This document shows, one piece after another, positions 763 to 60,025 of a DNA stretch of 64,000 nucleotides (its first letter is position 1; each line of letters begins with the position of its first letter). Below the pieces are notes generated by a model. That model made no database searches, was not told the origin of the DNA, and saw only the letters and a program-made list of their open reading frames with translations. Both the position numbers and the translations under genes were made by a program. The stretch comes from a virus. Where the stretch lies: positions 96,001-160,000 of the IMG/VR virus record IMGVR_UViG_3300049218_000295. The stretch is one strand, 5' to 3'.

Positions 763-3700
763 ATGAGCTTAACCGCGATATTCCAGTGGGACAATTCAGA
801 CTCGACGGCTGACCTAAACCAGCGGTTCTCCTCAATATATGCCAAAGGCATCATCAGCAATACTGGTGGACTGCTTTCGCCTGTTTCGGGACAACTGCAA
901 GTAACACTTTCTCCTTACATCGCTGTTGGCTTCGACGGAATGATGGTGCAAGAAAGTGCCGCCCAGACCTTCAATCTCGTCATCAATCAAACTAACGTCA
1001 TTGCACTTCGAGCTGTACACAATATTGGTGCGGCCCCTACTTTAACCTATGGCGTCTTCGAGATTACTGCTTTCAACAATCTCGTCAATCGGGACCAGTA
1101 TATTGCTTTCGGAGCGGTAACCGTTAGCAGTCCAGCCACCCAAGCTACTACGAATGATATCAGTTATAGCGGTCGAGATCAAAATGATCAAATTCAGCGC
1201 AATCCCTTTCGCGGACGGGTTTCTTCCCAAACCATTACATGTACCGAAGTGGAAGGCAGCCCGGTCCTGGCCACCACCCAGCTTTCAGATTTGAGTGTTG
1301 GTTTAGCAGTCTCGGGCATTGGTATCGCTTCGGCTTCCTACATTACAGCTATTAATAGCCCGGTTTCCACTACTGCCTCCTTTACAACTAGCTCAACGGC
1401 GATTACGGTAAATAGTGTAACCGGAATTTACCCTGGAATGTTGGTTACCGACACGACCAACAGCAACTATATCCCAGCGGGAACTACTGTAACCTCAATC
1501 GTTTCTACTACAGTTTTCATTAGTCAGGCAACTATTGGTACCGCAGCGAATGATACTGTATCCTTCCAGGGAAGCTTTGTTATCAATAACAACGCCATTT
1601 CTCCTGGTGGCTCACAAAGTCTCACTTTTGTCAACCTTCCCGTTCTTACCCCGAACCAAAATTTGCCTGGCGATTTCTACATGGTCAACCAAGGGACCGG
1701 CGATTTGGCGTCCATTTGGGCCTGGAATGGCGAAGTTTGGATTAACATCACGGATTCCCAAAGTATTGAATCTGAACTTACACAACATGAAGAAAATTTC
1801 TTCCAAAACCAAATCCATTTAACTAGTACCCCTGGCGTCAGCGACCAGGCAAGTGCTGCTCTCGGTTCCTATGGTATCCCCGGTTTACTGAACCGATACG
1901 TAACTCAGACTGACCCACAGTTCCCCTCGACTGATGAGGCGGAGGCACTAGTTGGTTTTCCGACATCCCCCGCTCCAAGCGCATCCAACGCCTATATTAC
2001 ACAACAGTATCCAGTAGCCGCCACTACGCAGGTTCTTTTCGCGCTGCCGCCCGGCGGACCAATCCAAATTCAGGCTTCTGAAGGTCCAATCTATGTCGGA
2101 ACCGGACCGGTCAACTCGGCCAATGTTTTCTTTATGCTTATGGACTTTAGCCTCAAAAGGGGCTATGTCAATAATGAGGGCGTGGCCCCTCAAATTGTTG
2201 GGGTCTTCACAGATGGCCTTCTTACTCAGCCATTAGTACCATCGTCCAACGCTAACGTGGACGCCAACGGTTTCTTCACTGGTGACCTCTTCCTTCAAAC
2301 CAGCACGGTTGTGGATACTGGTTTCCGCTTGGTTTATGGCTGCCGTCAAATTCTTTCCTCGGTAGTTAAAGACTTTACAGTAAACACCACCCCCGGAGAC
2401 GACACCATTCCTTCCTTGGTGGTCCAACAGGTGGCCAACATTAAAGGCCGCTCCTTCGATACCTCGACTCCCACCGATGAACAAAATATCAATCTCCGTA
2501 TTGACCTCAACGGTGTTCATTCTTACCTCGGTTCGGTTCTTGATACCAACACCGTGGCTGACGCCGCCGACTTTAAACGTCTAGCCGACGAGCCAACCAT
2601 CGGAAGCTACTTTGACTATAACGTTGGCATCGAGCCAATCTACACCTATTTGAACTCGTCCTTGACGGGTTACACCTACGCATTGGTATCCGGAACGGGG
2701 ACGATCACCTACACCAGTGGTGTCATTCCAGTAGGGGTCCAGGCGGGCAACCTTTTTATTGATGGTGACAATAATCAATATGTCATCCAATCTGTAATCT
2801 CGACCACCCAATTGACTATTGTTTTGCCTAGTACTGGTCTTGCTCCAAGCGCAAGCACTGTTATTACTGCTCCATCAGGAGCTGGAACCGCCCAGAGTGG
2901 CGCGTGCCAAGTAAATAACAACCCACGAAACGTCTTGATTTCTGAAATGAAGATCGATGGCCTTTCTGAAGTCATCGCAGTTCCCTCAATCCAGGCGAAC
3001 AACGCAGAGTTTTCACAACCATTGGGCCAAGTGGCTTATGCACCGGTCCGTCCAGACCAGCGCCTCGAACCGCGCCTCGTTTTCTATGGTGACGCCTGGG
3101 AGAATTTTCAGGACCCAGTAACTGGTGAACAATACGTTAGGAATGCTGGCACAGGCAGCTTTATGATTACCAGCATCTTCACTGATGTTGCGGTAATTGT
3201 CCGTCGCCGTGCTGGGTCTCCACCGCTAAGTGTTTCTATCAACGGCACCACTCCTTTCAACGTCAGTATCTCGGGTGGCGGACTAATCGCGGACGCCGTG
3301 ACCACAGCTTTCGGACCAAAATACGAAGCAGTTCCTATTGCTAAGAACTTGCAAAGTAGAGCAGATTGGAGTGCCACAACACCATCCACTATCACTGCTA
3401 CTATCGCTGCCGCTTCTTCTGAATCCTTTGATATTTATGGCATCTTGTTGATGAAGACCAATGATACCACAGCGGGTACTGTGGTATTGGAGTCTGGGGT
3501 CGCTTTCGCCCAAGCACAAATCATCCAGAATGATGTTGTCAATTCCACCGTCCCCATTCCGCCTCTGACCCCCTATCAACGCGGTGGACGAGTAAGTTAT
3601 GCCGCCAACAACGGCAGCTTTAACACCGCGATCTCGCAGCTTGCGACTCTGGATGGTGCTCCCAATACGAGCGCATCACCTAATGGTACTCTCACAAATT

Positions 3701-6700
3701 CTGGTTCGACGTCGCAGTTGGTTCTGTCGAATTCCAACTATGCCAGTTTGCTTGTTGGCTATCAAGTCAACGATATTGTCCAACTGATAAACACCACTTC
3801 GTTACTTTCTGACATCCACCGTATCACTGCTATCAACAACAATACGGTGACCTTCGAGAGCACTTCAAACACCAATGGCTCTACCTGCAATATGAGGCAT
3901 ATTTGCAGTACGAATAGCCCGGTAGTCAACCCAATTGACGCAGAAGTTGCACGTTATAACCTTGTCACGGACTTTACCAACGGAACTCCAACAGACTTCT
4001 CCGGTCCTGCGACTGCAAATCGCTACGCTTTAGGAAAAGACAAATACACCTTGGTCGCAGGGACCAACCTCAGTGTTCAATTCGAACCCGTCGTTACTGG
4101 CAGCTCAGCCGCAGTCCGTATTGAATCCGGCGGAACCCTAAGAATTAAAGTTTTAGCTACAAGACTTGACATTTTGGTAAACAGCCCATCGGCTGTTTCT
4201 TTTAATGTCTCCATCGACGGTTCGCCTGCCTACACCTGGGGTCCGACGATTGGTGGTGGACAACTTGTTAATTTGTTCTACAATGCTCGTTATCAAGACC
4301 ATGAAGTGGTCATCACAAATGCCACCGGTCTTGCTATTAGTGAAATCATCATTTTTGCGCCAGCAGCAGCTTCGCTTCCGGTTGATACTGTTGCGGTAGC
4401 GGACCTTTACCAGCCCGCATTCTATTTGCCTTCGCTATCCTATTTGTCGTCCGCCCCAAATACCTATCTGGTCGGTGGTTGGTTCCACGAGGCGCTTCAC
4501 TACATAGCAACATTGCTGGGTACAGGTGTAAATCCTGACTGGACACTCACGCAGAGCTGGTCGGACGCCGGTGGCAAATCACCATACGGCCAATACATGA
4601 GTACTGCGAACAACGGTTCCGCCGCCGAATTTTGGGTTCTCGGCACTGGGTTCGAATTGCAGTACATCATGGGTCCGAATCACGGGTATTTCAATGTTTC
4701 GGTTGATGGAACTGACCTCGCTTCCGTTTCCGGAACCCTTGTCGGTTCTAATCCAACAGGTGGGGCCTATTCCGGTGGCGTAGTCGATGCTTACAGTGCA
4801 GGCTACACTCGTAGGAACATTGGCGTTTATGGCTTGGCTTTTGGTCTCCATCATGTGGTTGCCAAAATTCCATCGACTTTGGCCAAAAACTCGGCGTCGA
4901 CCGGTTATTACATGGCATTCACCGGCTACTATGCTATCAACATGTCGAGCGGAACCACTGCTACACTTTCTATCGGCATCGACCAATATGGCAACTACAA
5001 TGGAGTAGTTGATACTCGCACTTTTGCACCTCTGCCTGTTATTGCGGGTGTTACGCCCCAAACTTACGAGCTTCTTGGAAGTAATGTCACCGCTCTCACG
5101 TCAAACCCGAACTACGCAGGTCGTGGCGCTCCACTTCGCACGGTTGGAAACAGTCAGGGTTTTGCCGATGCAATTGCTAGCATGGACAACCAGATTAGTC
5201 TGTTCTTTGACCAGCTCCGAATGTTACCAAGTCCACAAGCAGGTGGCACAATTTATTCTAACCGAGTAGCAATGCTTGGCTCAGACGTAACGATGCTCGA
5301 TGGAACAACCCGCAGCCAGATCATCAAGACGTTCTTGATGAACTTTAGTGGGGCACAGTTCTCGTTTGGAACCAGCGATGCTGGGACAATTTACGACCAG
5401 ACTGGATTAACGAGCATTGGTTCTTTTGCTGCAGTTAATCCTGGACCCGGAAACTTCCTTTGGTACTCGATCACAGCGCAGTCCAACACCCTCGGCTCCG
5501 ATAATCGGATGTCGATTGAGTTTACTGTCACAGCGGCGACTTCAACAGGGACAACTCAGGCTACAGCACCACGAGCTACTTTTGTCAGCGGCTTCCCAAT
5601 TGGCGAAGTATGCGTAGCAGGGACTACAGGTTCAGCGACCGTCAACGTCCTGCCTATTACTGCGGGCCAAATTGTCCAGTTGGGGATTGGGGCCGGAGCA
5701 GGCTCCTCAGGTTCGGGGGGCGGAGCGCCTACACAACCTGCTGATGGATTCTCACTAGTAGTTTCGGACACTTTCCAAGAATCACCCTCTGCTGTTGGCT
5801 CTTTCGTTAACCCGACGTACACCACGGGCTCATACAATCCGGCAAGCAACATCTACTCCTTGCTTTGTGACAAGACACCAACGATCACAACGCTGGGCGT
5901 AGATTTCACATTGAGTCAAGCCCCATCGGGTTTCTCACTCGCAGTCGGTAACGTTATCTGGGTGAACTCACTTGGTACTTTCTCCAAAGTCGCTACAGTC
6001 ACTTCCACAACCACAGGGACTCTGGACGTTGCTTTCTCTGCTGATCAGACTGCTGCGGCTGGGATGGTTGCTCAGGCTCTTTGGACTCTGGATTTGGCCA
6101 ACGTTGGGGACCCTGCCCACCAAACACGCCCTTGCGACTTCTACCCGAATTTCAACAGTCCGCAAATCAACATTGACTACGAAGACAGTTTGGCTTCGGG
6201 AGATGCAGTAGCCGACCTTGTGGCTCAAGCCCGCGTGGTAGTTGCGGCTTCGAACTACGGCTTCTACAATGATACCTCTTCAATCGCTCTATCGAGCCAG
6301 TATGCCCCAATCTTCACGCGGCCATCAGCTCCAAACCAAATCAACAACTACGTGCTTGATACTATTACTGGTATCGTGAGTGCCACTACCTCGAACACAA
6401 TCACGCTTTCACCGATTAACACCAACTTCTTAGCTGCGGCGGGTGAGCTTACCTACAGTACTTCTCTCACAACCACTGGAACTTTTTCATCAGGTTCTTT
6501 AACTATAACGGTAGCAAGTGCGGCGGGAATTGTAGTAGGAATGTACATCTCGGACACGAGCAATACGAGCTACATTCAGCCCAACACGATTGTAACATCA
6601 ATCGTTGGAACTACAATCGGAATAAACCAGCCAACAATGGGCGCAGCTTCTGGTGACGGACTTTCTATTCAAGGCAATACTCCTTTCACCTATACGAGCT

Positions 6701-52772: not shown

Positions 52773-52957
52773 GAGTAAATTCCTTCTTCAATTCGGCCAA
52801 GAACAGCAAGAATGTGCTCGCGGCCATGCTCTGTTTCAAGTAGGTCAAGCGGCTTTTTGTCGTCAAGTTCAGGGCGTGCGCGGTCCAACCAGCCATAGGC
52901 TGTGCGGCTACTACCAAAGATTCGAATAGCTTCGTTGATGACGAATTCTTTTGTCAT
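52769..52957 (-). CDS. Xre/MbcA/ParS antitoxin C-terminal domain, stand-alone
   Basis: AIRIFGS..TAYGWLDR...LDDKKPLDLLETEHG...LGRIEEGIYS. Confidence 0.8.
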   Translation of the reverse strand: MTKEFVINEAIRIFGSSRTAYGWLDRARPELDDKKPLDLLETEHGREHILAVLGRIEEGIYS

Positions 52958-52958
52958 C

Positions 52959-53156
52959 CTATCCCCGAAACTTCTTAGGTGTAACTGAAGCGCTATTGTC
53001 ACCCCTAATCTTATAGCTGCCATGTGCAACAATGGCCTTGGGCGATTCAGTACCACACTTCTCGCAGGGCACCGTTTCGCGGACTGCGCTAATGCGCTGA
53101 GTAAGCTCTTCAGTCTCGGCTTCACATTTCGGGCAACGATAGACGGTAATTGGCAT
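52959..53156 (-). CDS. FmdB-like zinc-ribbon protein
   Basis: MPITVYRCPKC...PCEKCG. Confidence 0.75.
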   Translation of the reverse strand: MPITVYRCPKCEAETEELTQRISAVRETVPCEKCGTESPKAIVAHGSYKIRGDNSASVTPKKFRG

Positions 53157-53172
53157 ACTATTCAATATAATT

Positions 53173-53247
53173 TGGTGGGGGAGCTTGGGCTTGAACCAAG
53201 GTGAGAAGGATTGCTCCAACTGAGTAAGTCTGCTACTCTACTCCCCC
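53173..53247 (-). ncRNA. tRNA-like RNA without an anticodon loop
   Basis: GGGGGAG/CTCCCCC-A-CCA; D-stem GAGT/ACTC; T-arm CTTGG-TTCAAGC-CCAAG; GGA-GCAA-TCC where the anticodon arm should be. Confidence 0.65.
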
Positions 53248-53252
53248 ATAAA

Positions 53253-53382
53253 TGCCACTGTAAGTGAAGAACCCTTTTACGTGCTTTAACCGCTAAGCTA
53301 CCTGCCGACAAGCGGCAGGGCCAGGATTCGAACCTGGCGTCCCGATCTCCAAAAGATGAAAGATTCTACGGAGAGTGGCGAA
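53253..53382 (-). ncRNA. YrlA/Y-RNA-like element 1 (Gln-type loop, then permuted T, acceptor and D arms)
   Basis: GCCACT/AGTGGC stem; TTCATC; ATC-TTTTGGA-GAT; CCAGG-TTCGAAT-CCTGG; CCTGCCG-CTTGT-CGGCAGG; GCTT-AGCGGTTA-AAGC. Confidence 0.75.
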
Positions 53383-53410
53383 ACAAAATCCTTTTACAGA
53401 AAACTGGAGG

Positions 53411-53474
53411 TGCCACTGTAAATCTCGAAGCGGTTTTATCGTTGCAAGATGAACGCTTCAAATAGAGTGGCGAA
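53411..53474 (-). ncRNA. Y-RNA-like element 2 (Cys-type loop only)
   Basis: GCCACT/AGTGGC; TTGAAGCG/CGCTTCGA; ATC-TTGCAAC-GAT. Confidence 0.7.
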
Positions 53475-53485
53475 TAGAAAATTGT

Positions 53486-53547
53486 TGCTACTGTAGAATC
53501 CTAAGCTTGTTTATCCCCAAGATGAAGGCTTAAGAAAGAGTAGCGAA
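53486..53547 (-). ncRNA. Y-RNA-like element 3 (Pro-type loop only)
   Basis: Compensatory GCTACT/AGTAGC; TCTTAAGC/GCTTAGGA; AT-CTTGGGG-AT. Confidence 0.7.
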
Positions 53548-53561
53548 TTAAAATTTTATGG

Positions 53562-53765
53562 TCAACTGTTGTTATCTTCAGCGATCTGTTCTAGGTCCTT
53601 TTTGTTGAGGGGCTCTTTTGAAAAGATGAAGCCATACATGTCGGAACCCTCAAAAGTCGGGTCCTCATACACGTGGCCTCCAAAGAACTTTGCGACTGTC
53701 TTTAGATCGCCAATCTCTGGTTGTTCTTTCCAATCCCAACTAATTGCTACAGTGTCTTTTGCCAT
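53562..53765 (-). CDS. Hypothetical protein
   Basis: AAGGA SD; 67 aa. Confidence 0.6.
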   Translation of the reverse strand: MAKDTVAISWDWKEQPEIGDLKTVAKFFGGHVYEDPTFEGSDMYGFIFSKEPLNKKDLEQIAEDNNS

Positions 53766-53781
53766 ATCCTTTTATAAATTA

Positions 53782-53906
53782 TGGTCGGGGGAGAAGGAGT
53801 CGAACCCCCATCTTCGCTCAACTGCTAAGAGCGTGTTCTCATGCACCAACTCGGACGATGCGGGCAGTCGCATCTCGCTGTTGCATTACCGTTAAACTAT
53901 CCCCCG
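53782..53906 (-). ncRNA. 125-nt tRNA-like RNA with expanded multi-hairpin interior
   Basis: CGGGGGA/TCCCCCG-A-CCA; TTCGACT T-loop; interior GATGCG/CGCATC and CGCTC/GAGCG hairpins. Confidence 0.65.
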
Positions 53907-53911
53907 AAAAA

Positions 53912-53977
53912 TGCCACTGTAGAACCCACGAGCCGGTTTTCATTTAACAGATGAAAGCTCGCAGAAAGAGTGGCGAA
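53912..53977 (-). ncRNA. Y-RNA-like element 4 (Asn-type loop only)
   Basis: GCCACT/AGTGGC; CTGCGAGCT/GGCTCGTGG; TTTCAT-CTGTTAA-ATGAAA. Confidence 0.72.
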
Positions 53978-53980
53978 AAG

Positions 53981-54532
53981 TTATTGGATATGGCCGAGCC
54001 TTTTGGCCTCAGCCATTACTAAAGCGATGCGTGGGTCATTCCAGTACTGTTGATAAAGCACAGGCCCAAGCAACCTTTTAATGTTTACGAATTCTTGTTC
54101 AAAGGAATGCGACTGAGCATTGAAGAACCAACCAATTTTAGAAACATTTAGTTGACCGGCTAGAAACTTAAAGCCATTTATAGTGGGTCGATACTTGCCC
54201 AGTTTAGCGACTTTCAAAGGCACTTGTGGTTCAACTAATTCCCAGTGATTCAATTGGGCGAAGGTGGTTCCGGCGGTATCTTTACGGCGTTTGGCTATGC
54301 ACATGTTTGCTGGAATAAACTGCGCAGGAGTTTGTTGATTTTGCACTACAATAAATAGGCCTTCCGCCATGGCTTTCGTAAATCGGTGCGGGTATAGACC
54401 TTCATCTCTGCCGGTACTGGAAATCACACGTTTATGACTAAGGATATTGGCTCTCTGCTCTAAAACCACATCTTTGTATAGTCTATGCCCGTTCATCTGA
54501 ATGTCCAAATCGGAAAGTGTATGGTCTATCAT
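53981..54532 (-). CDS. Hypothetical protein
   Basis: 183 aa; GGAG SD. Confidence 0.55.
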   Translation of the reverse strand: MIDHTLSDLDIQMNGHRLYKDVVLEQRANILSHKRVISSTGRDEGLYPHRFTKAMAEGLFIVVQNQQTPAQFIPANMCIAKRRKDTAGTTFAQLNHWELVEPQVPLKVAKLGKYRPTINGFKFLAGQLNVSKIGWFFNAQSHSFEQEFVNIKRLLGPVLYQQYWNDPRIALVMAEAKRLGHIQ

Positions 54533-54663
54533 CTTGGTTCTCCCAAATGTCTTTTATAGCATATAATACCCAAATCGACTTCTTACAACCACCACATGAA
54601 CATGAGGCCTTTTCCTGCCATCAGAGGACAACATTGACATTACACCTTTTATGGAGCACTCAG

Positions 54664-54737
54664 TCTAGCTGGCTGGATTCGAACCAGCGCTCCCTTCGTC
54701 CCAAACGAAGTGCGATACCAGACTTCGCCACAGCTAG
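54664..54737 (-). tRNA. tRNA-Pro(TGG), no adjacent CCA, nested in a longer stem (54652-54750)
   Basis: CTTCG-TTTGGGA-CGAAG; C1:G72, A73. Confidence 0.88.
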
Positions 54738-54772
54738 ACTCAGTGCTCCAGAAAATGGTTCCCGTGGAAATG

Positions 54773-54928
54773 TTGTGACCCTCGGGACAGGTTGTGAGCC
54801 TCCCAGTTAACTAGCCATTCGGGACTTTCAGAGGACTTCTCAGTCAGGTTTCCCTGCATTGCCCCTTACGATCTTGTTCCGAACCCCCTAGTTCAGTTCA
54901 CTACCGTTTAAAAATCACGGCGGTCACG
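54773..54928 (-). ncRNA. Candidate multi-stem structured RNA (about 155 nt)
   Basis: GTGACC/GGTCAC, AACTAG/CTAGTT and TTCGG/CCGAA stems; GNRA hairpins CAGG-GAAA-CCTG and GACT-GAGA-AGTC. Confidence 0.55.
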
Positions 54929-54933
54929 AAGTT

Positions 54934-55053
54934 TGCTACTATAATCTCAAAACCCAGACCTTGCGGTTTTCATGGGTGCGGAATCGAACCGCCCCGGCCT
55001 CTGCCGGTGCCGCCAATAGGCCCCGTGATGAAGGGTTTCAAAAGAGTAGCGAA
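54934..55053 (-). ncRNA. Y-RNA-like element 5 (anticodon-less mini-tRNA payload)
   Basis: GCTACT/AGTAGC; GAAACCC/GGGTTTT; GCC-TATTGGC-GGC; CCGGC-AGAG-GCCGG; GCGG-TTCGATT-CCGC. Confidence 0.7.
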
Positions 55054-55060
55054 TTGGCTT

Positions 55061-55285
55061 TTATAGCTTCAATCGTTTATGGACCTCGTCCCAGTAGACT
55101 CGTCCATGAACTTCGACTACAGCCTCTTCTAGGCGTGAGAGAATTGTCTTCTCTTTCCATCCCGACTTGAGGCCTTCCTTCACAAACTCGCCGTAAGCGA
55201 CGACGTAGCCCTGTGAGTGTAAAGTGTCCAACAGAACAGCTAATGGTAAGCCATGTGTGTCGTAGAGCTTAAAGAGCCCTGACAC
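55061..55285 (-). CDS. Small protein resembling a helical segment of alanyl-tRNA synthetase (start uncertain)
   Basis: LFKLYDTHGLPL...GYVV..GEF compared with AlaRS AFKLYDTYGFPLD...GLxVDxxGF. Confidence 0.6.
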   Translation of the reverse strand: MSGLFKLYDTHGLPLAVLLDTLHSQGYVVAYGEFVKEGLKSGWKEKTILSRLEEAVVEVHGRVYWDEVHKRLKL

Positions 55286-55368
55286 TACCGGTCGCTGATC
55301 CTCGGTGATCCCGATTTGATTTAATAACTTGCCCCCATATGAGTACCCTCCTTAAAGATACTGTTGTT

Positions 55369-55485
55369 TGCCACTGTAAAGATGGAACCCGCATTTGTAC
55401 TGGCGTCCTATCCAATTAGACTATTTTCACGGGATTCGAACCCGATTTCCAGTTGGATTGATGAAAGATTCCTAGAGAGTGGCGA
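55369..55485 (-). ncRNA. Y-RNA-like element 6 (Trp-type loop, T-arm, D-arm, acceptor stem absent)
   Basis: GCCACT/AGTGGC; GGAATCT/GGGTTCC; CGGG-TTCGAAT-CCCG; TAGTCTAATTGGATAGGAC; ACTGG/CCAGT. Confidence 0.72.
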
Positions 55486-55678
55486 TACTTAAAAAAGTGT
55501 ATGGGCTGTACGCAAGAACAAGAGCTTAAAAGCTGTTTCGGTCGACTACGAATAGACTATGAGCAAGTCCTCCCAAATAGAGGAATTGCGCTAGTACCCG
55601 GTTCCACTTCGGGCATCCGGGTCGGTGATGTGGTCTTCTGCTTCTCGGGGTCGACCTTTATTGGGTATGTCAACATCA

Positions 55679-56272
55679 ATGGTGACTAATGCTGACTTCA
55701 TTCAACTGCTTGGGCAATCCGTCGACAAGGCCATTGTCAATGGAGGCGGCGGGGCTGGTGGCCAGATTGTGGCTGTTTACGACGGCTTTGCCCTCACCAG
55801 TCACGGCGAGAGGGTGCCATTGCCGCCAGAGACGGGTCTCACCGTGAGTATTTGCGAAATCACTGGCCGCCCTGATAAAGTGATTTATGGTATCACTGAC
55901 CGACCAACAATGATCATACGTATGAACTATTCAGGGGGTTTCAATCTACTGATTGAGGACTATGCCCGGTTTCCAAATCACATTGAATTGCACGGCGACA
56001 TTGAGGAAGGTCGCTACCGGATTGTCCAAGCCGATACCCAGGAAGAGCTTGATGAGTATGGGCGTAGCCTAAATGTTGCTGTAAGTCGTAGTCTATCTGA
56101 GCTTCTAAAGTCACAATGCCCAAACGGCCATAAGTGGCACTACTGCCCAACCCATAATACGCTACAAATGAATTCAGGCCACGATAAAGTTACCCAAAGC
56201 GAGGGCGGGAAATGCCTGGGAGCGACGGTGGCTCCTTTCGAAGGCGACCAGGACCGAAGCGATAATTGCTGA
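55679..56272 (+). CDS. Hypothetical protein
   Basis: About 197 aa; C-terminal CPNGH...CPTH. Confidence 0.5.
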   Translation: MVTNADFIQLLGQSVDKAIVNGGGGAGGQIVAVYDGFALTSHGERVPLPPETGLTVSICEITGRPDKVIYGITDRPTMIIRMNYSGGFNLLIEDYARFPNHIELHGDIEEGRYRIVQADTQEELDEYGRSLNVAVSRSLSELLKSQCPNGHKWHYCPTHNTLQMNSGHDKVTQSEGGKCLGATVAPFEGDQDRSDNC

Positions 56273-56344
56273 AGTAGAAGGTCTGTGTTATTTTACGCCC
56301 ATTGGCTCACGGAAACGTGGTTGCCGGTCTCACATAAGTAAAAA

Positions 56345-56433
56345 TGGGCGGAGCCCTCACATTGCATGACAGCTCCGCCCGTTGTCAAGGCCCGAGGAAT
56401 TCTTGGTGGATATTCCTCGGGCCGTTTGACAAG
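56345..56433. terminator. Two tandem strong hairpins
   Basis: GGGCGGAGC/GCTCCGCCC and TTGTCAA-GGCCCGAGGAAT/ATTCCTCGGGCC-TTGACAA. Confidence 0.55.
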
Positions 56434-57148
56434 CGCCAAAAACTATGTTCATGAGTTGGATCAGGTGGATTTGACCTCTGGAATTTCCGCACCGCAAGGG
56501 CCTGTGGCCCCCTATTGGTTTAGCTTATCCCCGTCTGTCCACCCGGCCAGGGTATCGGACTCGATAGGGTCTCAGCGGATTTTCCACTCACTGCTTGTAA
56601 ATTCAAAAACTCTTCTGCAAACTTAGTCCCCCAATACGTTTGAGGCCGGTGTTGGATCTCTCCAAACCGGCCTCGAATTCCTTCAAAACTTTTTAATCTT
56701 GTTGATTAAGTTTTGAGATCCTCCAAAGCCGATTCGTTCCCGAGTTTACCGGGGCGACGATCCAGGCACATAATCGCGACTGCCACTGCTGGCAACGCGT
56801 GCGTCTTATGTAATCTGGTTGTTAGCTTTATCGATCCCATTTGTTTTACCTAATCTCCTGTGGCCTTTTATGGTCCACTGGATTGTTCTAACATGAAATC
56901 TAATATCGAGTCAATATTTCTATTTGCTCGTATATCTCGCTGCTTGTACTGTGAGTTCTTCTAGCCGCTCGCAGAGACCCAATAATTGCTGATGCTCTTC
57001 TGAGGTGAGAGGCAAATTCTGATAAACTTTTTCTCGGAGAGGGAAAATTTTGTTTCTGAGTTGTTGAGAACGACGGAGCAGCACTTCTTGATAGGGCAGC
57101 ACTCCGATTTGGGCCAGAACTCTCCTTACCGATTCTGGACAAGAAGTA

Positions 57149-57484
57149 TCACTCATCAGTAGTAGCTCCATTCTTGTATTCGAGATACGCGTTGAGGATG
57201 GCTTCAATATTCTCTCGGCCCACCGGATTAGCTGAGTGCACGTTGAACTGAAAATCATCCGGAATTCGTACTTTTCCATCAAGATCAGCATCCACCAGCC
57301 ATTTCGCAAAGCCATAACCGGATTCACTTTCAATATCGGAGCCTAAATCGTGATCAAATGAGATATAAGAAGGGCACCCTGATTCCAGGACTACGGTCTT
57401 CGCTTCATCAACATTACGAACCACTACCCAGGAACGCTTGGTCTTAGGAACACGCTCGTCATCGATATAAAGTGACCAACTCAT
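57149..57484 (-). CDS. Cyclic-phosphate-processing receiver-like domain protein
   Basis: LYIDDER.P, ISFDHDLG, GY, VHSANPVG. Confidence 0.8.
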   Translation of the reverse strand: MSWSLYIDDERVPKTKRSWVVVRNVDEAKTVVLESGCPSYISFDHDLGSDIESESGYGFAKWLVDADLDGKVRIPDDFQFNVHSANPVGRENIEAILNAYLEYKNGATTDE

Positions 57485-57711
57485 TTTCGGTACCTTAATC
57501 GTAAACCTTGAATTGAGCCATAGCACGATGGCTTGTTCCAGTGTTTCCAGGGCTTACACATCCCACAACCACACGAAAAATTAGACTTCCGCATTCGACC
57601 CAACTGCTTGGGATCATTTTTCCATTCTTTGACCATCGCGCCCCAAATACGCATACGCTTTTTTGAGACACGTTCTGACTGCTGCCTTCGATAAGCACGA
57701 GACCGAGACAT
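57481..57711 (-). CDS. Small Arg/Lys-rich protein with CxCxxC
   Basis: MSRSRAYRR...SCGCGMCKPWK; AAGGAG SD. Confidence 0.7.
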   Translation of the reverse strand: MSRSRAYRRQQSERVSKKRMRIWGAMVKEWKNDPKQLGRMRKSNFSCGCGMCKPWKHWNKPSCYGSIQGLRLRYRK

Positions 57712-57791
57712 TTATACTCTCCTTGTTGTCGACGGGCGCAACCCGCACGAACTTGAAGAGTATCAGAAAGTTTATCATGGCCATAAAATAA

Positions 57792-58406
57792 CTACACCCA
57801 GCGGAAAATATACCCGCCTGCTGACTTGTACCCGTTTTTACCCCGCAGGCAATTTCTAATATGCCCTCGGTCCACATTCAGTTTGTGCGCAGCATCACGT
57901 ACCATTAAGAATTCGCCCACTTTCTCACCTGTCTCTTTATTGAAAACCTCAAAAGGCTTTGCGCCATTACTCAAAGCGATTTTGGTCCTGTGTTCAGCGC
58001 TGTTGACATGACCGTGGCGTCGTTGGTTAGCAGCGACAATCGCAGCTATTACTTTTGGCTGTTTCATTCTCAGTCGAACTACGTCGGAGATTCTTTGCTT
58101 GGTGATGAGGTTATGGGTGGCTTTCTCACCACCTTTAGTCAAATTGAAGCCACTGGTGGGATCTGTTGAGTCATAATGGTCAATCCAGAAAATCTCGCGT
58201 CGGCAGGCTTCTTCCCAGGTTGCACATTCCTCAATTATAGACCAAACAAACGCAGCCTTACCATACTTTCCTAAAGCTCTAGAAAAGTGCGAACTTTGTT
58301 TCCCAGCTTTGCTTTCGTGGTGCCATCTCCTATCTTTCAATCCCCTGCTTGTGATTCCGATATATACACGTCCGTCTGCATGAGTAGCCTTATAGACAAC
58401 TATCAT
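57792..58406 (-). CDS. GIY-YIG homing endonuclease with C-terminal NUMOD-type DNA-binding region
   Basis: VVYKAT...VYIGIT...R, E..WI, GFN; F..VRDAA...I..CL...SAGGYIFR. Confidence 0.9.
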   Translation of the reverse strand: MIVVYKATHADGRVYIGITSRGLKDRRWHHESKAGKQSSHFSRALGKYGKAAFVWSIIEECATWEEACRREIFWIDHYDSTDPTSGFNLTKGGEKATHNLITKQRISDVVRLRMKQPKVIAAIVAANQRRHGHVNSAEHRTKIALSNGAKPFEVFNKETGEKVGEFLMVRDAAHKLNVDRGHIRNCLRGKNGYKSAGGYIFRWV

Positions 58407-58427
58407 ACAATAAAGGTAAGACTGGGA

Positions 58428-59084
58428 TTAATCGTAGTCCCAAGGGTCAAGCCAAAGGCGCAATAGGCTTTTTTGGTCGGCAAAAGCATCCCAATCGCCC
58501 TTGGCAATCATACGTTCTTCCCAGCGTCGCATGCCACGGTTTCCGAGAGTACGACAGTACTTGCGTGCGCCCACACCCCGACGCCAATTACCGTAGTCTC
58601 GGCGGCGACTACGGGTGAAGCCCTTTTTGTCGCGCCAGTCCTTCTTCTTTTGCTTTTCGGCCTCGACTTCGGGGTCACGCTCTTTAGCGGAATAGTCCAC
58701 TGGGATTTTTTGGCGGTAGTGCGCACCGTTGCGAGGGTACCAATGGGAATAATCGTCGCGGAGACAGCTACAGTAGCGACGATAACGGTGATGTCTTTCG
58801 CAAACACGTGGCAGGCCGCCATTAAGAACGGCGGTCTCGAACTCTTTATAGGAGAGTTTGAGTTGCCCACCACCGCGACCAAGGTGGTAGAGATAGGTAA
58901 GAGTATCAAGTCGGATTTGATGGCTGGGCTTTACAGGCTCGGGTTCGGGGTCACGCCAAGGGGCGTAGTAGCGATATGGGGGTGCCCAGCAGGGGTCACC
59001 GTGCTGAGATTTGTAGAATTCATAAGCGGATGCTATGAACTGACGTTGAACGTCTTCGGTCCAAGGGGATGATACAGAATGCAT
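58428..59084 (-). CDS. Arg/Trp/Tyr-rich basic hypothetical protein
   Basis: 218 aa; AAGGAG SD; ends DPWDYD. Confidence 0.65.
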   Translation of the reverse strand: MHSVSSPWTEDVQRQFIASAYEFYKSQHGDPCWAPPYRYYAPWRDPEPEPVKPSHQIRLDTLTYLYHLGRGGGQLKLSYKEFETAVLNGGLPRVCERHHRYRRYCSCLRDDYSHWYPRNGAHYRQKIPVDYSAKERDPEVEAEKQKKKDWRDKKGFTRSRRRDYGNWRRGVGARKYCRTLGNRGMRRWEERMIAKGDWDAFADQKSLLRLWLDPWDYD

Positions 59085-59145
59085 AGTTTATAGGCTCCTT
59101 TACTAATGACCTATAAACATATAGTCCTCCCTTTGTGTGTCAAGT

Positions 59146-59210
59146 GATGAAAGATTGCGCCGAGAGCGGTGAACAAGTCCCCAAGACCAGCCGCTATAAT
59201 TGGACAACCC
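59146..59210 (-). ncRNA. Circularly permuted copy of the Y-RNA-like scaffold in a 5' leader
   Basis: GGGTTG..ATTATAGCGG-loop-CCGCTCTC..CAATCT-TTCATC. Confidence 0.5.
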
Positions 59211-59272
59211 TTTGAGGCCTTTTTGGGGCCTCACATCAAAGGTAACACAGGTTGTGGACCATGTCAATCCAT

Positions 59273-60025
59273 TTATTTGAATTGCTTGATTTGCTTGGAC
59301 AGTTCTATGGCTTGCTTTACGCGTTTTATTGCTTCTTCACAATATTTGGGTTCAATTTCAATCCCAATGGTTCTGCGCCCTTCAAGGATCGCAGCAATAC
59401 AGGTAGAGCCGGTACCCATAAAGGGATCGAACACGATTTCATTTTGTCCAGTAGACATTTCAATGAGCTGTGTAAGCAAGGCGATTGGTTTTTGAGTGGG
59501 GTGAGTACGTGAAGTTTCTCCCGACCGACTTACGCGCAGTACTGTGCCTTTACGCAGTCGGGCAGCAAGCTGCCCAGTCTTTTCAGAACGCTTGCCAGTA
59601 TAACGTTTAACACCAAACCAAATTGGTTCATGGCTCTTGCCCCAAGGAATTGTAAGATCTCCCGCAGACATTGAGGATTTATCCCAAATTAAATCTGTCA
59701 CACCGCCCACTTCATTTGGAATTGTCTGACTAGGAGTAATCGGGCCAAAAACGTACCCATGACGGTTGATTTTGAGTTCTCGCCACGACTTGTTCAAAAT
59801 TTCCAAGACTTTAGTATAATCGTCATCGCCTGTAATGCCATCAAATTGTTCGAGCACGTCTCGACTATTGGTCTTATAACCGTTGCAATACGGTGGATCG
59901 GTGAGCAACAAGTCATAGACTCGTCTTGCTGCCCCAATACCCTCTGCTGGCAGTTCAGGAATAACTTCGAGAGCGTCACCGCAATAGAGAATGACGCCCT
60001 CAGATTCAAATATTGGTTTAATCAC
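59273..60025 (-). CDS. DNA N6-adenine/N4-cytosine methyltransferase (beta class)
   Basis: TDPPY, HPTQKP, FDPFMGTGST, IGIEI. Confidence 0.92.
   Translation of the reverse strand: MIKPIFESEGVILYCGDALEVIPELPAEGIGAARRVYDLLLTDPPYCNGYKTNSRDVLEQFDGITGDDDYTKVLEILNKSWRELKINRHGYVFGPITPSQTIPNEVGGVTDLIWDKSSMSAGDLTIPWGKSHEPIWFGVKRYTGKRSEKTGQLAARLRKGTVLRVSRSGETSRTHPTQKPIALLTQLIEMSTGQNEIVFDPFMGTGSTCIAAILEGRRTIGIEIEPKYCEEAIKRVKQAIELSKQIKQFK

Follow-up and report, generated by a model that had tools for sequence, protein, structure and literature searches.

A circularly permuted copy of a Y-RNA-like stem module in the leader of a phage gene, and its possible link to Ro60

We analysed a window of 64,000 nucleotides (nt) of phage DNA, which corresponds to bases 96001-160000 of the 168,948-base-pair (bp) IMG/VR record IMGVR_UViG_3300049218_000295 (completeness 66% according to CheckV). 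The minus strand of this window contains about 25 tRNA genes, six normal-order copies (E1-E6) of an RNA scaffold and a gene for a protein of 218 amino acids (aa), which leads on to a cyclic-phosphate-processing receiver gene; all genes near the element described here are on the same strand. The leader of the 218-aa gene contains, at 59146-59232, both halves of the 53-55 kb scaffold in reversed order, and none of the modal features is missing. A first-pass annotation of this DNA had described at this place a seventh, circularly permuted copy of the scaffold, and this observation is confirmed when the sequence is read on the minus strand. The span proposed at that time, 59103-59235, covers the element but includes also the mini upstream open reading frame (uORF) of the leader. 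The position of the element, just upstream of the Shine-Dalgarno (SD) sequence of this uORF and of the 218-aa gene, is as had been claimed.

In E1-E6 the parts follow one another in the order P1a (5' strand of helix P1), CUY.., P2a (5' strand of helix P2), UUCAUC, payload, A-rich run, P2b (3' strand of P2), ..UAY and P1b (3' strand of P1). The parts of the leader copy are listed in the table. It was compared with two orthologous leaders, which gave a set of three distinct sequences (window, L190 and L194), the leaders of contigs L190-L193 being identical. The 5' hairpin has another stem in L190 (AUGCAGG/CUUGCAU, loop CUAAAAA) and is lacking in L194. The small hairpin of the P1 cap is found also in L190 (GGUCC/GGACC) and L194 (GUC/GAC), and the UGUUCA of the cap is invariant. 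UUCAUC is present without change in 18/18 free scaffolds and in 3/3 leaders.

Table. Coordinates of the leader element, its surroundings, the free scaffold copies and the Ro60-linked loci (positions refer to the window unless a contig is named)
Feature	Position	Strand	Remark
-35-like TTGACA	59262-59267	-	TTGACG at the same place in L190 and L194
-10-like TACCTT	59239-59244	-	17 nt after the -35; predicts RNA start near 59232
Hairpin GAGGCC-CCAAAAA-GGCCUC	59214-59232	-	Predicted folds; takes the place of the payload hairpin of the normal scaffold
AAA	between 5' hairpin and P2b	-	Sequence
P2b (P2 3' strand) GGGUUGUCC	59202-59210	-	Pairs with 59152-59161, one bulged base
3' side of internal loop, AAUUAU, 6 nt	59196-59201	-	Modal family 3' loop: AUUCAC, AUUUAC, AUUUAU or UUCUAC
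P1b (P1 3' strand) AGCGG	59191-59195	-	Pairs with CCGCU 59165-59169
P1 cap, 21 nt: CU, small hairpin GGUCU/GGACU, UGUUCA	59170-59190	-	Conservation and fold
P1a (P1 5' strand) CCGCU	59165-59169	-	Pairs with AGCGG
5' side of internal loop, CUC, 3 nt	59162-59164	-	Modal family 5' loop: CUC, CUU or CUA
P2a (P2 5' strand) GG(C)GCAAUCU	59152-59161	-	Carries the counterpart of the Y-RNA CGAA motif, CGGC here
UUCAUC	59146-59151	-	Unpaired in predicted folds; the messenger RNA (mRNA) runs on from here
SD GGGAGG of the mini-uORF	59126-59131	-	14 nt after UUCAUC
uORF MFIGH-stop	59103-59120	-	First codons form hairpin 5' arm 59110-59118 (9 bp)
Main SD AAGGAG	59095-59100	-	In hairpin loop
Hairpin 3' arm CCUAUAAAC	59086-59094	-	One base before main AUG
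218-aa gene, main AUG 59084	58428-59084	-	All-alpha, very basic C-terminal half
cREC_REC gene, cyclic-phosphate processing receiver	57149-57526	-	Pfam PF20274, E 2.1e-22
Six normal-order scaffolds E1-E6	53253-55485	-	Taken as free Y-RNA-like genes, presumed trans partners
SD-uORF-hairpin leaders	window 59082-59131; L190:456-497; L194:226-274; L196:5960-6003	- (window)	
SD-uORF-hairpin leaders	L197:2373-2422; L198:5955-6003; L200:1440-1491	reverse (L200)	
Scaffolds; Ro60 gene	L199:1047-1427; 1501-3132	same strand	Adjacency
Scaffolds; Ro60 gene	L256:2020-2344; 2364-3986	same strand	Adjacency
Scaffolds; Ro60 gene	L257:2102-2383; 2501-4153	same strand	Adjacency
Scaffolds; Ro60 gene	L258:2290-2434; 2501-4159	same strand	Adjacency

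Both helices that had been proposed, AGCGG/CCGCU and GGGUUG/CAAUCU, do pair, and RNAfold gives the permuted fold as the minimum free energy structure and as the centroid for the window and for both orthologues. The P2 cells are 96% paired across the three sequences, with one U-G to G-U swap, and the pair cells as a whole are 95% paired in the three leaders as compared to 32-54% with slid partners. A further pairing between UUCAUCA and UGAUG (P3) was considered and dropped, because the predicted RNA start falls after UGAUG and L194 is without the partner. A 54-aa open reading frame (ORF) that crosses the element (59103-59267) was rejected as coding: the orthologous leaders differ by indels of 2, 4 and about 20 nt, which therefore exclude a coding reading.

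For the comparison with the family we used 18 free scaffold copies from six contigs, the leader copy being left out. In a MAFFT alignment the outer P2 pairs of different copies fall in different registers; the permuted copy was assessed by a structure descriptor and by hidden Markov models (HMMs) of the two halves. The descriptor consists of P2b, a loop ending in UAY, P1b, cap, P1a, CU, P2a and UUCAUC, with all pairs required. On both strands of the 168,948 bp it gives one permuted match, at 59146-59232, and it recovers five of the six normal-order copies of the genome; its permuted form gave no match in 200 second-order Markov genomes that keep the trinucleotide content. Since the descriptor was composed after the site was known, this test is not fully independent. 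With the 5'-half HMM the leader ranks first among non-members (E value 0.17, the next being 2.8), and with the 3'-half HMM it has an E value of 4.8, above one true member. These two matches lie 25 nt apart, on the same strand and in reversed order, and a rough joint estimate for them is about 1e-4. When the half-HMMs were built from the six window copies only, the leader halves were not significant.

Conservation points in the same direction. Among 5.8 billion proteins only two close homologue clusters of the 218-aa protein were found, and the contigs of both (L190-L193; L194) carry the element directly upstream of the gene. Although the downstream proteins are only 64% (L190-L193) and 54% (L194) identical to that of the window, the element is nearly invariant: GGUUG, UUAU, GCGGCU, UGUUCACCGCUCU, GG and CAAUCUUUCAUC are shared by the three leaders, and the scaffold-defining positions are unchanged in L190 and L194.

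When the leader copy is set beside the free copies, the same architecture is evident. The free copy L256c reads CU-CUC, GAAUAAUCU, UUCAUC ... AGGUUGUUC, AUUUAU-AG, and the leader reads CU-CUC, GG(C)GCAAUCU, UUCAUC and GGGUUGUCC, AAUUAU-AG. In the clade P1 is closed by CU/AG followed by CU, and this is found in the leader as CCGCU-CU and AU-AGCGG; the free copies have YACU-CU and AY-AGUR, the pair beside the closing pair being A-U there and G-C in the leader. The modal internal loop of the free copies sets CUY against six bases ending in UAY or CAC, and the leaders have the same 3x6 arrangement (CUC/AAUUAU in the window, CUU/UUUUAU in L190 and CUU/UCUUAU in L194). P2 of the clade has about 9 bp; the leader P2 has 9 bp with one bulged base, and UUCAUC stands directly 3' of its 5' strand. 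In the 18 free copies P2 has 17 distinct sequences, with pairing in every copy: it is 7-11 bp long in 15 of them, an automated count gives 5-6 contiguous pairs in the other three, and cognate helices average 8.4 bp as compared to 4.5 bp for non-cognate ones. P1 of the free copies is variable apart from its last pairs. What the leader lacks is the normal order of the clade, i.e., 5' half, payload and 3' half. Moreover, the stem of a Y RNA comes from the pairing of its own 5' and 3' ends, as in E1-E6, and the leader copy ends at the P2/payload side with P1 capped, its stem and loop being intact.

Y RNAs also carry a CGAA-type motif (GNCGAAN0-1G, GGUCCGA), described in PMC12135203 and PMC4201824. 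This is not found in the leader, which reads CUCUCGGC, or in its orthologues, which read CUCUUGGU. The exact CGAA occurs in L256c and L256d, and the other Ro60-adjacent copies have CGAU, CGAC, CGGC or UGGA. Because these copies vary at this place, the clade takes a relaxed YGR there, and the counterpart of CGAA appears to be the CUCU-YGR stretch at the border between loop and P2. A scan of 52900-59400 with Rfam gave no match at the leader element, either at the gathering threshold (69 bits for YrlA) or at E values up to 5.

The link of the scaffold to Ro60 comes from other phages. G001, a complete 182-kb phage reached via an early pattern match (L111), has in order a tRNA array, four tandem scaffolds, a terminator and a gene for a 544-aa protein. 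Three of these scaffolds are short, and one has a domain with T-arm, closed acceptor and D-arm. The 544-aa protein matches Pfam vWA_Ro60 above threshold, compares with TROVE/Ro60 clusters at a feature score of 0.97 and a template-modelling (TM) value of 0.80, and is named 60 kDa SS-A/Ro ribonucleoprotein in the JGI (Joint Genome Institute) annotation; against solved chains there was no sequence match at E values up to 0.01. Its homologues in L256, L257 and L258 are 64-71% identical. The Ro60 genes of G001/L199, L256, L257 and L258 each have, immediately upstream and on their own strand, two to four tandem scaffolds. In L259, whose Ro60 is 38% identical to that of G001, a variant element is found upstream (L259:2290-2400). 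What is new here is this adjacency of scaffold copies and Ro60 genes in four other contigs of phages, with the variant in a fifth.

Some details of these loci may be added. The variant of L259 reads AACCGCG-CU-GGGGGAAGG-UUUCAUC ... CUUCUCCC-GAUC-CGCGGUU; it retains CU, the P2 helix and UUUCAUC, and its P1 and 3' loop differ. Because UUUCAUC is retained there, UUCAUC may be the most conserved feature of the clade. In L199, L257 and L258 the scaffolds come after a tRNA array or a tRNA-like gene, and a terminator-like hairpin separates them from the Ro60 gene; L256 has neither. At the Ro60 loci a TATAAG-like -10 is found 12-20 nt ahead of the first scaffold copy.

Permuted tRNA domains offer a second link. 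YrlA has been described as a stem that binds Ro60 and bears a tRNA in circularly permuted form (10.1101/312249). E6 and Sc, a copy of the G001 locus, carry T-arm, closed acceptor and D-arm in the YrlA order, and YrlA-like permuted tRNA domains occur in three window copies. E6 matches Rfam YrlA over its full length at 24.1 bits (threshold 69), and for Sc no YrlA match was found on the L111 scan at E values up to 1; in the copies tested the clade is below the Rfam YrlA threshold. According to published work, the Y RNAs of bacteria and phages are marked by a place beside Ro60, by an internal loop within the stem and by an effector of the permuted-tRNA type (PMC4201824, 10.1101/312249, PMC12135203). 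For this reason we read the scaffold as the stem module of a phage Y-RNA clade.

The leader copy also tells something about its own origin. In the window and in L190 a payload-like hairpin and an A-run stand ahead of P2b, which indicates that the permutation is complete and has placed the new ends in the interval from UUCAUC to the payload. When applied to G001, the permuted descriptor matches only at the junctions between tandem copies, and the leader cap ends with UUC before P1a like the spacers of tandem arrays. For these reasons the element most likely derives from the junction of two tandem Y-RNA genes, in which case the permuted order would come from the 3' half of one gene, the spacer behind it and the 5' half of the gene that follows.

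Upstream of the element a promoter-like site (TTGACR-N17/18-TAYYYT) is kept in three different upstream contexts: TTGACA-17-TACCTT in the window, where the gene upstream is a co-directional methylase gene; TTGACG-17-TATCTT in L190, where a divergent gene lies upstream; and TTGACG-18-TATTCT in L194. The consensus scanner omits the window site because its -10 matches only three of the six TATAAT positions. This site predicts that transcription begins with the first base of the 5' hairpin or, in L194, at P2b. The first-pass annotation had named a transcript start downstream of the motif as counting against its proposal: the conserved site predicts a start at the element, but a window-specific site lies downstream of it. 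The latter, listed by the scanner at 59116-59143 (-) as TTGACA-16-TATGTT, falls between the element and the uORF, and an RNA from it would lose the uORF start and part of the 5' arm of the hairpin.

The uORF and its hairpin are a second, independent device. Equivalents with differing sequences were found in L190, L194, L196, L197, L198 and L200, also in leaders of homologues that are without the Y-like element. In all leaders of the family that were read, an SD precedes the uORF, and the hairpin pairs the beginning of the uORF with the bases just ahead of the main AUG, so that its loop contains the main SD. The uORFs have 4-6 codons (MFIGH, MFIETY, MFIGI, MIVFH, MIGI, MSIVL and MIIGRL), five of them ending with TAG, one with TAA and one with TGA. 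The hairpin arms are complementary despite the differing sequence: GUUUAUAGG/CCUAUAAAC, AUGAUAGU/ACUAUCAU, GAUAGG/CCUAUC, GAGUAUAGUA/UACUAUAUUC and GAUUAUAG/CUAUAAUC. From this arrangement the device looks like a uORF-dependent unmasking of the main start site. In L194 an additional GC-rich hairpin, GGGACC-UUUG-GGUCCC (L194:194-225), stands between UUCAUC and the uORF SD; it is found neither in the window nor in L190, and it might serve as a signal for processing or as a weak terminator.

The 218-aa protein gave no Pfam, PHROG, PDB-fold or named Atlas match, and no relatives were found in IMG/VR by the single protein or by alignment. Further downstream, the cREC gene is present also in L190; its domain, which is linked to RNA ligases, has a predicted role in the processing of 2',3'-cyclic ends (PMC7824862). 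The operon that had been proposed to extend to this gene is supported as far as strand and order are concerned, but between the two genes come one for a GIY-YIG endonuclease and one for a 76-aa protein. The cREC ORF as listed has a GTG start and a 46-nt overlap with the preceding 76-aa gene; an ATG at 57484 gives an ATGA overlap with the stop of the 76-aa gene and agrees with the residue at which the Pfam match begins (residue 18). Behind the 218-aa gene, both the window (57792-58406, -) and L196 (L196:6712-7323) have the GIY-YIG/NUMOD homing-endonuclease gene, which L190 lacks; two of the homologous loci carry this insertion at one and the same spot.

The homology of the element to the scaffold, its conservation and its position are observed directly in the sequences, as is the linkage of the scaffold family to Ro60. 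The reading that we prefer, to which we give about an even chance, is that the leader carries at the 5' end of the mRNA a cis copy of the protein-binding module of Y RNAs. By analogy with the family, the protein bound by the module would most probably be a Ro60/Rsr-type ring, encoded by the phage or by the host. An earlier suggestion of a protein-binding site shared by the free RNAs and the leader is thus partly supported, and it gains a concrete candidate, Ro60, from the scaffold family that adjoins Ro60 genes. In the free Y RNAs of the clade P1 is closed by the 5' and 3' ends, and UUCAUC is followed by the payload, which is either a permuted tRNA domain of the YrlA type or an anticodon-like hairpin. 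In the permuted copy P1 is capped, the 5' end of the RNA would enter via the payload hairpin and P2, and the mRNA would exit after UUCAUC, at the payload position of the free Y RNAs; this route would put the module at the extreme 5' end of the 218-aa message. A protein that recognises the Y-RNA stem could then bind the leader in cis and be tethered to the message. The tethering might alter the stability of the mRNA, through a PNPase-type partner or protection of the 5' end, or the access of ribosomes to the uORF; for the uORF to be translated, the conserved hairpin around the main start site would have to be opened. The leader would have competitors for this protein in the six free Y RNAs. Transcript start, binding and regulatory outcome are what we infer. 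Taken to its full extent, the model would be that of an inside-out Y RNA, with the mRNA as payload, Ro60 (and perhaps the host PNPase too) at the 5' end of one message, and a switch titrated by Y RNAs on an operon linked to RNA-end repair; this we put forward tentatively, as a possibility.

Several observations weigh against the proposal of a cis-acting Ro60 site. No Ro60/TROVE gene was found in this record, which is 66% complete, and the connection of the scaffold with Ro60 consists of gene adjacency in other phages plus the YrlA-like design. G001 has Ro60, four Y RNAs and a homologue of the 218-aa protein, and its leader is without the element; therefore the module is not general to the 218-aa gene family. 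The leader P1 (CCGCU/AGCGG) departs from the YACU/AGUR end seen in 18/18 free copies, and at the place of CGAA the leader of the window has CGGC and the two orthologues have UGGU. The fold z-scores of the window and the orthologues range only from -0.9 to -1.7, and therefore the thermodynamics alone is not significant. In addition, the helices hardly vary among the leaders, where a single pair shows a two-sided change, and for this reason the structure of the leader rests mainly on analogy with the free copies. As to transcription, the methylase gene upstream in the window is co-directional and the element may therefore sit there within a longer transcript, and a promoter-like site specific to the window, not conserved in L190 or L194, lies downstream of the element at 59116-59143. 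Finally, the spacer from the element to the SD is 13-14 nt but about 30 nt with the extra hairpin of L194, which argues against a precise steric block of the SD.

A somewhat unlikely alternative is that the element constitutes a Y RNA gene of its own, the seventh, whose product is transcribed at the head of an operon, is then cleaved off to give a stable RNA of about 90 nt with paired ends, and acts in trans rather than on its own message. Operon-borne Y RNAs beside RNA-repair genes are established (PMC7790460, PMC4201824), and here the RNA-repair-linked cREC gene is among the downstream genes; the element folds as a closed domain with its 5' end paired, a GC-rich hairpin comes after it in L194, and the spacer to the SD is not conserved. 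On the other hand, there is no terminator or U-tract after the element in the window or in L190, the element is tied in three contexts to the 218-aa gene and not to a Y RNA array or Ro60, and it has no effector payload besides the mRNA itself.

It is less probable, and in our opinion unlikely, that a relic of a tandem junction has been kept only as a 5'-terminal stabiliser against 5'-end-dependent decay, with no specific protein partner. The base pairing predicted for the 5' end, the plausible junction origin and the drift of P1 and of the CGAA position from the family consensus would all fit. However, the unpaired CUY, the loop ending in UAU, UGUUCA and UUCAUC are invariant in spite of the 54-64% identity of the proteins, and the same unpaired motifs persist in the Ro60-linked copies.

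The basic 218-aa protein itself could bind scaffold RNAs and repress its own message, given that the element is always directly upstream of its gene, that its C-terminal half is strongly basic and conserved, and that a homologue is encoded by G001, which has four scaffolds. We consider such an autoregulatory operator quite improbable: most members of the family (including G001, L196, L197 and L198) have the uORF and the hairpin but no element, the protein is without a recognisable RNA-binding fold or family, and the genomic partner of the scaffold elsewhere is Ro60.

A chance likeness of an unrelated structured leader, which the lack of significance of each half alone by sequence and the weak z-scores might suggest, is very improbable, in that the halves co-occur, the architecture matches without any counterpart in the simulated genomes, and the conserved positions are exactly those that define the family. 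Hardly credible at all is a normal-order scaffold split by a 1.4-kb insert, in which the partner of the 5' half (59146-59169) would be GGGUUGCGCC (57735-57744, -), located past the 218-aa gene and just after the GIY-YIG gene: this stretch is a 10-bp complement (G-U pairs included) of GGCGCAAUCU of the leader, but it is followed by no P1 3' strand or UAY loop, has no equivalent in the 3.8 kb of downstream sequence of L190 and is probably due to chance, and the local P2 partner is kept in 3/3 leaders.

The arrangement proposed here, a cis copy of the Y-RNA module in a leader, has precedents of different kinds. The thrS operator mimics the anticodon arm of tRNA-Thr and the operators of ribosomal proteins mimic rRNA sites; through these leader mimics threonyl-tRNA synthetase and the ribosomal proteins repress their own messages. 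As would be the case in the phage, the RNA site of a protein is copied into a 5' leader near the start, and free RNA and mRNA compete for it. However, those mimics are convergent or loosely similar with respect to their models, whereas the phage leader contains a literal permuted homologue, and the regulated gene apparently does not encode the putative binding protein. Known Y RNAs are small and free, and they gate Ro60 or tether it to partners such as PNPase; we know of no bacterial or phage mRNA with an embedded Y-RNA-like Ro60 site.

Among the Y RNAs themselves, YrlA/YrlB (RF02553; Chen et al. 2014, PMC4201824; 10.1101/312249) resemble the free copies, which have a long stem, a protein-binding internal loop and an effector end that is sometimes a permuted tRNA; the scaffold family occurs in small tandem sets beside Ro60, and the leader element retains the stem module. 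In place of GNCGAAN0-1G, the scaffold stem has CUCU-YGR on its 5' strand together with a 3x6 loop and the invariant UUCAUC, and the leader copy differs in being permuted, without payload and part of an mRNA. Yrl1/Yrl2 of Thermus phage phiLo (Nucleic Acids Research 2025, PMC12135203), which bind the phage Ro60 and the host PNPase, are likewise Y-RNA-like genes directly upstream of a phage Ro60, with a stem-bulge-stem structure; they were chosen by the exact CGAA motif, and no cis mRNA copy is described in that work. In Salmonella, YrlA/YrlB are made from an rsr-yrlBA-rtcBA transcript (PMC7790460), and thus Y RNAs are co-transcribed with genes for cyclic-phosphate RNA ends, as cREC is found downstream here. 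The Salmonella Y RNAs, however, have the normal order, lie between rsr and rtcB and are released, whereas here a permuted module heads the transcript; rsr, rtcB and rtcA genes were not seen in the annotated stretch of about 50.5-64 kb. Animal Alu retroelement RNAs (cited in PMC12135203) also have a Y-RNA-like Ro60 site within a longer RNA, but they are eukaryotic and repeat-derived.

If the preferred reading is true, an mRNA of bacterial or phage origin would for the first time be seen to carry a Ro60 site that acts in cis. With the conserved Y-RNA stem in its 5' end, the message would itself be a direct mRNA target, and the leader, Ro60 and the competing Y RNAs would make a simple test system. 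In addition, a phage Y-RNA clade is defined, with modular payloads (anticodon-like hairpins and permuted tRNA domains), linkage to Ro60 in five contigs and the invariant UUCAUC, and the junctions between tandem copies appear as a plausible route to circularly permuted RNA modules.

Pattern searches for further copies were mostly fruitless. One exact-pattern scan of public collections gave at least 118 loci, of which only those from G001 were real; another gave 71, none real; and a further one gave 5, again with only G001 real. A pattern scan of genomes gave 41 loci, about the number expected by chance, and the best-looking of them, L211, falls inside a glucose-6-phosphate dehydrogenase gene. 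The leader-specific pattern had no match in viral contigs, and its sole metagenome match, L195, was judged to be chance, with an AT-rich context and no other scaffold parts.

The region of the free copies has some further features. Between E1 and E2 a 74-aa ORF (55061-55285, -) has a weak match to the alanyl-tRNA synthetase family (PF01411, E value 0.0013, profile positions 387-424, FKLYDTHGLPL), and it may be a stand-alone fragment of the tRNA-binding region among tRNA-like RNAs. No relatives were found for the 183-aa neighbour of E3. Two tRNA-like genes (53176-53247 and 53785-53906, -) stand immediately 3' of E6 and E3; they score 31.7 and 34.3 bits with Rfam tRNA and are called by ARAGORN in neither case; one of the two has a very short anticodon arm, and the other has an insert of about 50 nt.

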